In this document: positions 38,361 through 39,676 of the stretch, piece by piece
How positions within the stretch are numbered: the stretch's first letter is position 1
How the letters are laid out: the number at the start of each line of letters is the position of its first letter
NCBI RefSeq assembly: GCF_056712565.1
Contig: NZ_CM160072.1
DNA: 64,000 nt
Strand: one strand, 5' to 3'
Made by a program: the position numbers and the translations under genes
Notes under the pieces: generated by a model
The model's input: only the letters and a program-made list of their open reading frames with translations
What the model was told of the DNA's origin: nothing
Databases searched by the model: none

Positions 38361-39676
38361 ATGGGAAACACATCAATACAAACGCAGAGTTACCGTGCGG
38401 TAGATAAAGATGCAGGGCAAAGCAGAAGTTACATTATTCCATTCGCGCTGCTGTGCTCACTGTTTTTTCTTTGGGCGGTAGCCAATAACCTTAACGACAT
38501 TTTATTGCCTCAATTCCAGCAGGCTTTTACGCTGACAAATTTCCAGGCTGGCCTGATCCAATCGGCCTTTTACTTTGGTTATTTCATTATCCCAATCCCT
38601 GCCGGGATATTGATGAAAAAACTCAGTTATAAAGCAGGGATTATTACCGGATTGTTTTTATATGCCTTCGGCGCTGCATTATTCTGGCCCGCCGCAGAAA
38701 TAATGAACTACACCTTGTTTTTAGTTGGCCTATTTATTATTGCAGCCGGATTAGGTTGTCTGGAAACTGCCGCAAACCCTTTTGTTACGGTATTAGGGCC
38801 GGAAAGCAGTGGTCACTTCCGCTTAAATCTTGCGCAAACATTTAACTCATTTGGCGCAATTATCGCGGTTGTCTTTGGGCAAAGTCTTATTTTGTCTAAC
38901 GTGCCACATCAATCGCAAGACGTTCTCGATAAAATGTCTCCAGAGCAATTGAGTGCGTATAAACACAGCCTGGTATTATCGGTACAGACACCTTATATGA
39001 TCATCGTGGCTATCGTGTTACTGGTCGCCCTGCTGATCATGCTGACGAAATTCCCGGCATTGCAGAGTGATAATCACAGTGACGCCAAACAAGGATCGTT
39101 CTCCGCATCGCTTTCTCGCCTGGCGCGTATTCGCCACTGGCGCTGGGCAGTATTAGCGCAATTCTGCTACGTCGGCGCACAAACAGCCTGCTGGAGCTAT
39201 TTGATTCGCTACGCTGTAGAAGAAATTCCAGGTATGACAGCAGGTTTTGCCGCTAACTATTTAACCGGAACCATGGTGTGCTTCTTTATTGGTCGTTTCA
39301 CCGGTACCTGGCTCATCAGTCGCTTCGCACCACACAAAGTCCTGGCAGCCTACGCATTAATCGCTATGGCACTGTGCCTGATCTCAGCCTTCGCTGGCGG
39401 TCATGTGGGTTTAATAGCCCTGACTTTATGCAGTGCCTTTATGTCGATTCAGTACCCAACAATCTTCTCGCTGGGCATTAAGAATCTCGCCAGGACACCA
39501 AATACGGTTCGTCCTTCATCGTTATGACCATTATTGGCGGCGGTATTGTCACTCCGGTCATGGGGTTTGTCAGTGACGCAGCGGGCAACATCCCCACTGC
39601 CGAACTGCTCCCGGCACTCTGCTTCGCAGTCATCTTTATCTTTGCCCGTTTCCGTTCTCAAACGGCAACTAACTGA
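38361..39676 (+). pseudogene. fucP: L-fucose:H+ symporter disrupted by a 1-bp deletion frameshift
   Basis: ORF stops at 39527 after ...IFSLGIKNLARTPNTVRPSSL (388 aa). The expected C-terminus (DTKYGSSFIVMTIIGGGIVTPVMGFVSDAAGN...RSQTATN) continues in the -1 frame to the TGA at 39674-39676. Lesion at ctcg^cc, about 39489. Confidence 0.75.

Follow-up and report, generated by a model that had tools for sequence, protein, structure and literature searches.

The window, a 64,000-nt stretch of contig NZ_CM160072.1 (assembly GCF_056712565.1), contained the fuc locus, with fucP as the first gene of fucPIKUR and divergent from fucAO. Downstream of fucP, the plus strand carried intact fucI (39709-41484), fucK (41593-43011), fucU (43013-43435) and fucR, encoding the operon activator (43493-44224), none of which differed from its relatives. 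The divergent operon on the minus strand (35991-37814) was also intact, and consisted of fucO (35991-37139) and fucA (37167-37814). The DNA of all six genes (fucA, fucO, fucI, fucK, fucU and fucR) was identical to that of APEC E18055, and no secondary decay of the fuc regulon was seen at the locus.

In fucP, both direct reading and the ORF list gave a plus-strand reading frame of only 388 amino acids (38361-39527), closed by a TGA at 39525-39527. It comprised 376 native residues followed by 12 out-of-frame residues (ARTPNTVRPSSL), so that its C-terminal end read ...FSLGIKNLARTPNTVRPSSL before the stop. From 39491, the FucP C-terminus (QDTKYGSSFIVMTIIGGG...RSQTATN) was picked up in the -1 frame and ran as far as the native stop (39674-39676), and this displaced but intact coding sequence on the plus strand (39491-39676) corresponded to FucP residues 378-438, including the transmembrane helices TM11 and TM12. 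Within it, an ATG-initiated ORF of 50 amino acids (39524-39676, plus strand) started at native Met389 and read MTIIGGGIVTPVMGFV...RSQTATN in a frame differing from that of the 388-aa ORF, its ATG overlapping the premature TGA (ATGA).

Base-level alignments to UTI89, PA45B, ATCC 11775, APEC E18055, JNEC-KY173 and K-12 placed a single gap at 39488/39489. The wild-type sequence was AATCTCGGCCAGGAC, against AATCTCG-CCAGGAC in the window, and the codons AAT CTC GGC CAG GAC of the wild type were read as AAT CTC GCC AGG ACA. Of the two wild-type Gs at fucP nt 1129-1130, the lesion therefore left only one (39489, plus strand), changing CTCGGCCAGG into CTCGCCAGG. A motif scan found CCAGG, a Dcm methylation motif, directly 3' of the lesion (39490-39494; wild-type fucP nt 1131-1135); any part of this motif in the deletion is speculative. 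The sequence 3' of the gap was identical to ST95-type fucP, and no second, compensating indel was present anywhere in the gene, leaving the frame disrupted relative to intact orthologues. As written, the window sequence certainly encodes a broken fucP. With no exact match among 5,038 complete genomes carrying fucP, the feature is to be read as a discrete lesion of a highly conserved gene and not as a chance pattern. The earlier note, made from the window alone, had placed a premature fucP end at 39527, followed the rest of the C-terminus intact in the -1 frame to 39676, and proposed the loss of one G near 39489, with fucI, fucK, fucU and fucR intact downstream. All of this was borne out, by the TGA in the ORF list, by the 62 codons running to the native stop, by the lone gap relative to finished genomes and by the identity of the downstream genes to those of APEC E18055, respectively.

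The window product covered positions 1-378 of the 438 positions of the NCBIfam NF007524 profile (L-fucose:H+ symporter permease) with a score of 840 bits (curated equivalog cut-off 427), and scored 593 bits against TIGR00885 (cut-off 280). The 50-aa ORF covered NF007524 positions 389-438. An intact relative matched the same profile over 1-438 and PDB 3O7Q/3O7P end to end (1-438). On family match and genomic context, the locus can thus be assigned to fucP, but the FucP that it encodes is not intact. The product was without 62 native residues, among them the two final hydrophobic segments, approximately residues 382-406 and 407-434; these correspond to TM11 and TM12 in the 12-helix major facilitator superfamily (MFS) fold. 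FucP belongs to this 12-helix fold class (PMC8154325). Asp46 and Glu135 were still present in the window product. The untranslated gap ahead of fucI increased from 32 to 181 nt, and some polarity on the operon is possible.

The following consequences are predicted. Loss of a G from the GG pair would shift the frame after Leu376, and the ribosome would then add 12 wrong residues and stop, giving a product devoid of TM11 and TM12. Given the MFS architecture, a six-helix C-domain deprived of two helices would not be expected to fold or to transport as a fucose:H+ symporter, and truncated FucP is almost certainly non-functional. Fucose enters the cell through FucP, and the inducer of the fuc regulon derives from the imported sugar. 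With uptake lost and the internal inducer absent, the strain is therefore predicted to be Fuc-negative, with an intact but uninduced fuc regulon. Both the loss of function and the Fuc-negative phenotype are what we infer from the truncated sequence.

Function could be rescued if a -1 slippage within the 12-codon stretch yielded full-length FucP, or if the 388-aa and 50-aa ORFs formed a working split permease, but such a rescue is very improbable. The ATGA overlap between the premature stop and the tail ORF is an arrangement able to support termination-reinitiation, and split MFS permeases are sometimes functional, as the complementation between LacY fragments illustrates. No Shine-Dalgarno-like sequence was found ahead of the tail ATG, however, and the 50-aa piece begins in the middle of TM11, leaving native residues 377-388 absent from both pieces. 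As for slippage, neither an X XXY YYZ heptamer nor a homopolymer of at least four bases occurred in the region 39440-39530, no significant local secondary structure was detected, and the frameshift was conserved in 0 of 5,038 genomes. Programmed ribosomal frameshifting was rejected on these grounds, as slippery motif, stimulatory structure and conserved arrangement were all absent.

The distribution of the allele was examined among complete genomes. A 101-nt query around the lesion matched 5,038 of the 5,426 complete RefSeq E. coli genomes, but none of these 5,038 fucP-carrying genomes contained an exact match; the best matches had 99.0% identity over a span of 102 nt, meaning that the extra base was present. 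Apart from the gap, fucP was identical to that of the ST95-type strains UTI89, S88, APEC O1 and ATCC 11775, and about 25 genomes shared the top score, with a span of 25,001 nt, for a 25-kb query centred on the operon. Judged by these matches, the window is an ST95-type chromosome. It differed from APEC E18055 (O2:K1:H7) by two substitutions (17744 and 58359) and one indel over the full 64 kb, from PA45B by six substitutions and one indel over the same length, and from UTI89 by eight substitutions and one indel over 41 kb. In all three comparisons, the lone indel was the fucP G. The fucP lesion therefore postdates nearly all other differences in this region.

Searches for related alleles were equally negative within their scope. 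None of the five possible one-base-deletion alleles ranked above the wild type in finished genomes when searched as a concatenated query, a result that holds only for genomes whose 72-nt flanks are identical. Two scans run without a positive control also gave 0 matches, one being an exact-pattern scan of the GTDB representatives and the other a search of JGI metagenomes for alleles with any deletion of 1-2 nt. The earlier note had offered either a recent inactivating mutation or a sequencing or assembly error, and had left room for a reference with the same sequence as the window. K-12 and all other references had GG, and the two-way framing was judged right. The word "recent" was supported as well, the 64 kb being otherwise identical or near-identical to finished ST95 genomes and no complete genome carrying the allele.

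Two further observations were made on fucP in complete genomes. The fucP queries were unmatched in 388 of the 5,426 E. coli genomes and covered less than 80% of the gene in 31 more; larger events that remove or disrupt fucP are therefore not rare among E. coli. Moreover, EV36 (a laboratory K-12/K1 hybrid), KMS2001 and KMS2005 were identical to ST95 strains across 27000-51999, and this segment of EV36 and its derivatives appears to come from the K1 donor, not from K-12.

Apart from the fucP deletion, the only variant private to the window relative to finished genomes was the substitution at 58359 (A>C), which changes Thr81 to Pro in an Hcp-family type VI secretion system gene (58119-58610), the A being present in UTI89, PA45B, ATCC 11775 and APEC E18055. 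The Hcp T81P protein appeared in 67 blocks of the public collection. Two GenBank assemblies matched the window without a single difference, GCA_027274065.1 (a 5.12-Mb contig) over 15.9 kb and GCA_023858825.1 over 12.4 kb, and they probably represent a sister strain or the source itself. As T81P is common to other assemblies, it is regarded as a genuine polymorphism and the window substitutions as trustworthy. At 7387-7392, ATCC 11775 was without 6 bp (CGCAGG) of the window, inside a LemA-family gene. The TPM-domain gene at 7705-8598 was annotated as intact in PA45B and as an incomplete pseudogene in APEC E18055, both being identical to the window, which looks like an annotation inconsistency and not a sequence difference. 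At 51348-51649, just upstream of a type VI secretion cluster, three tRNA-Met genes stood in tandem, repeating about every 110 bp; L024, a contig from a sister strain, starts exactly inside this repeat, which the window crosses.

The same site was then inspected in other public assemblies. An exact look-up of the truncated 388-aa protein returned one other contig (L004; Logan ERR13964322), which came from a different lineage, 58 substitutions away over 6.5 kb, and owed its truncation to loss of a C, not a G (dC1128; CT-GGCCAGG), this being its sole difference from the nearest finished genome. The detached 50-aa tail was found on nine contigs, while the same FucI protein was listed in 37,736 blocks of the collection; the FucI neighbourhoods that were returned were all intact. 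The nine contigs comprised dC1131 in two metagenome assemblies otherwise identical to ST95 fucP (L012, L013), to dG1134 or dC1131 with A>G (L014-L016), and to two metagenome scaffolds, one with a 22-bp deletion (L009) and one with a scaffold N-gap (L010). In L008 the lesion lay elsewhere (dT1093), and L011 was uninformative since its locus begins downstream of the site.

The identical deletion, dG1129, was recovered in two further contigs. The first (L035/L055; Logan SRR29342803, 52.7 kb) differed from the finished genome XJ34 by four substitutions and the fucP gap in 21 kb, and its truncated protein was found in three assemblies. The second (L042/L056; Logan ERR9438557, 29 kb) differed from several finished genomes by the gap alone (21,167 nt against a 21,168-nt span). 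L055 and L056 were separated from each other by 209 substitutions over 21 kb, and the window differed from them by 279 and 267 positions, respectively, over the 13.6 kb that aligned. The same G is thus missing from at least three deeply separated and otherwise clean backgrounds, which implies independent losses or independent miscalls. In a clustering test restricted to clean independent events, from which the window was excluded, and to the 110 nt able to yield a detached tail, 4/9 lesions fell within 10 of the 110 nt (P=0.006) and 2/9 were the identical G loss (P=0.011).

At the level of the whole site, deletions and a gap cluster at CTCGGCCAGG, fucP nt 1126-1135 (39486-39494), in L004, L009, L010, L012, L013, L035 and L042. 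Detached 50-aa tails also occurred in another enterobacterial species, whose tail variant (P0023; L045-L050) was about 81% identical to E. coli fucP. The same single base, at the counterpart of nt 1154, was deleted in two of these contigs (L047 and L050), and the absence of any indel in the aligned part of the others suggests nonsense mutations.

A genuine and very recent fucP null mutation at a recurrently hit site is the reading that we favour as probable. Small deletions recurring at CTCGGCCAGG, beside the Dcm site, in unrelated E. coli lineages would probably mark a mildly mutable site. The recurrence next to this motif, including the identical G loss, moves the odds moderately towards a real mutation, and we infer that the base is truly absent from the DNA of the organism.

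The main alternative is an artefact, in which the organism has wild-type GG and the assembly dropped a base at a difficult site, where a GGCC palindrome adjoins a Dcm-methylated CCAGG; this is a possible but less likely explanation. The lesion does touch the Dcm motif, and public assemblies of long-read type failed at the same motif and at other Dcm sites or homopolymers of fucP. In L014-L016, the extra indels were located at other Dcm sites (nt 759, 870-871) or at homopolymers (nt 211, 260), and in L037 (GCA_910593955.1) and L038 (ERZ1759872), both with a K-12-type tail, fucP contained five indels each, at 6-base homopolymers or Dcm sites. Such a pattern is the classic signature of older nanopore data. 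These five contigs served as positive controls for a methylation and homopolymer signature, defined by multiple indels at Dcm/Dam motifs and long homopolymers, and the window did not show it. It held 188 CCWGG sites, 63 homopolymers of at least 6 bases and nine other GGCCAGG heptamers, yet the fucP G was its only indel against PA45B or APEC E18055 in 64 kb. With two SNPs and one indel relative to APEC E18055 over this length, the window assembly is not indel-prone, although one residual error per 64 kb would be compatible with a long-read assembly of roughly Q50. That a long-read-based assembly is involved is suggested by the passage of the window through the triple tRNA-Met repeat at which the short-read contig of the sister strain (L024) ends.

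The form of the lesion also bears on the artefact. The error-laden assemblies showed CCA-G or GG-CGGG at the site, never dG1129, and always with two to five further indels, whereas two unrelated lineages, one of them in three assemblies, had the identical dG1129 in 21-kb contigs that were otherwise flawless. Moreover, methylation-induced errors of the current nanopore chemistry (R10.4.1) are C>T and G>A substitutions, and CCWGG is handled normally, with an accuracy of about 99% (PMC11610603). Dcm methylation of nanopore templates was for these reasons downgraded as the main explanation, the carriers of dG1129 being clean and the error-laden contigs never having dG1129. As a side effect of such errors, the shredding of fucP/fucI into short ORFs in L037, L038 and L014-L016 has propagated false "proteins" to sequence databases.

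Frequency can be read in both directions. A singleton among 5,038 finished genomes, with no match in GTDB representatives or JGI metagenomes, is what an error would produce too, and the co-occurrence at one spot of dC1128, dG1129, dC1131, a scaffold gap and a 22-bp deletion, with metagenome scaffolds breaking or dropping 22 bp there (L009, L010), could denote a technically difficult site. The truncated product was recorded only for L004, of another lineage and with another lesion, and the many sequenced members of the window's own clade gave no confirmation. As no read-level assembly of the clade contained the truncated protein, the deletion either belongs to a single isolate alone or is missing from the reads. 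A systematic error, on the other hand, would be expected to turn up far more often than in a handful of assemblies out of tens of thousands. The rarity of the lesion, the clean contigs and its presence in three assemblies of one lineage are together better explained by a mildly mutable site on which purifying selection acts than by a systematic error of a platform.

Possible mechanisms of base loss were also considered. A hairpin or quasi-palindrome mechanism was rejected, as dC1128 would create a perfect palindrome (CTGGCCAG) and dG1129 does not; local DNA folding was no better than that of shuffled sequence (fold z-scores of about 0). A stronger version of mutability would make CTCGGCCAGG a genuine sequence-specific deletion hotspot, possibly through Dcm methylation and very-short-patch (VSP) repair synthesis just 5' of CCAGG, that recurrently knocks out fucose uptake, the knockouts perhaps being transiently favoured in some niches. 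We regard this as unlikely; if it were true, -1 frameshifts might concentrate, so far unnoticed, at Dcm sites generally. A literature search on fucP frameshifts or hotspots, or on frameshifts linked to VSP repair, returned nothing specific.

Under the favoured reading of a genuine null mutation, the strain would be unable to import L-fucose, a mucin-derived sugar of the gut, which would represent a small difference in metabolism for an extraintestinal pathogenic E. coli of ST95 type. This is a null allele of a very well-known gene in a single strain, with nothing new on mechanism, and the type of feature is entirely ordinary, comparable fucP losses having already been documented in Shigella (PMC11708030). 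For annotation, fucP is here to be treated as a frameshifted pseudogene, the 388-aa and 50-aa ORFs not being separate proteins. The loss of the same G or its neighbours beside a Dcm site in several unrelated assemblies offers a modest lead on indel hotspots or error profiles.

Among known systems, the closest counterpart is FucP of E. coli K-12 (b2801; TC 2.A.1.7; PDB 3O7Q/3O7P); the two genes are the same, as is their fucPIKUR/fucAO context. After repair of the frame, the window protein would differ from it by two residue changes (L103F and I417L), and Asp46 and Glu135 of the K-12 protein were kept in the window (PMC8154325). Unlike K-12 FucP, the window product ends at residue 388, with 376 native residues and without TM11-TM12. 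Strain- or lineage-specific losses of fucP in Escherichia/Shigella resemble that of the window in that the permease has gone by a simple mutation while much of the fuc locus was kept (PMC11708030). In S. flexneri serotype 6, fucP is without its first 342 nt (PMC11708030), and S. flexneri K-315 has an IS1-associated fucP disruption (L039 and L040, with IS1 genes upstream). The Shigella lesions are, however, inherited and lineage-wide, and consist of a 5' truncation or an IS, whereas that of the window, with one base deleted close to the 3' end, is private. In its position beside the Dcm site CCAGG, the lesion of the window is also like the errors of nanopore-only assemblies, which lose a base at this motif; those assemblies nevertheless have several indels per kilobase-scale gene and another form of lesion at the site, as opposed to a single indel in 64 kb in the window.
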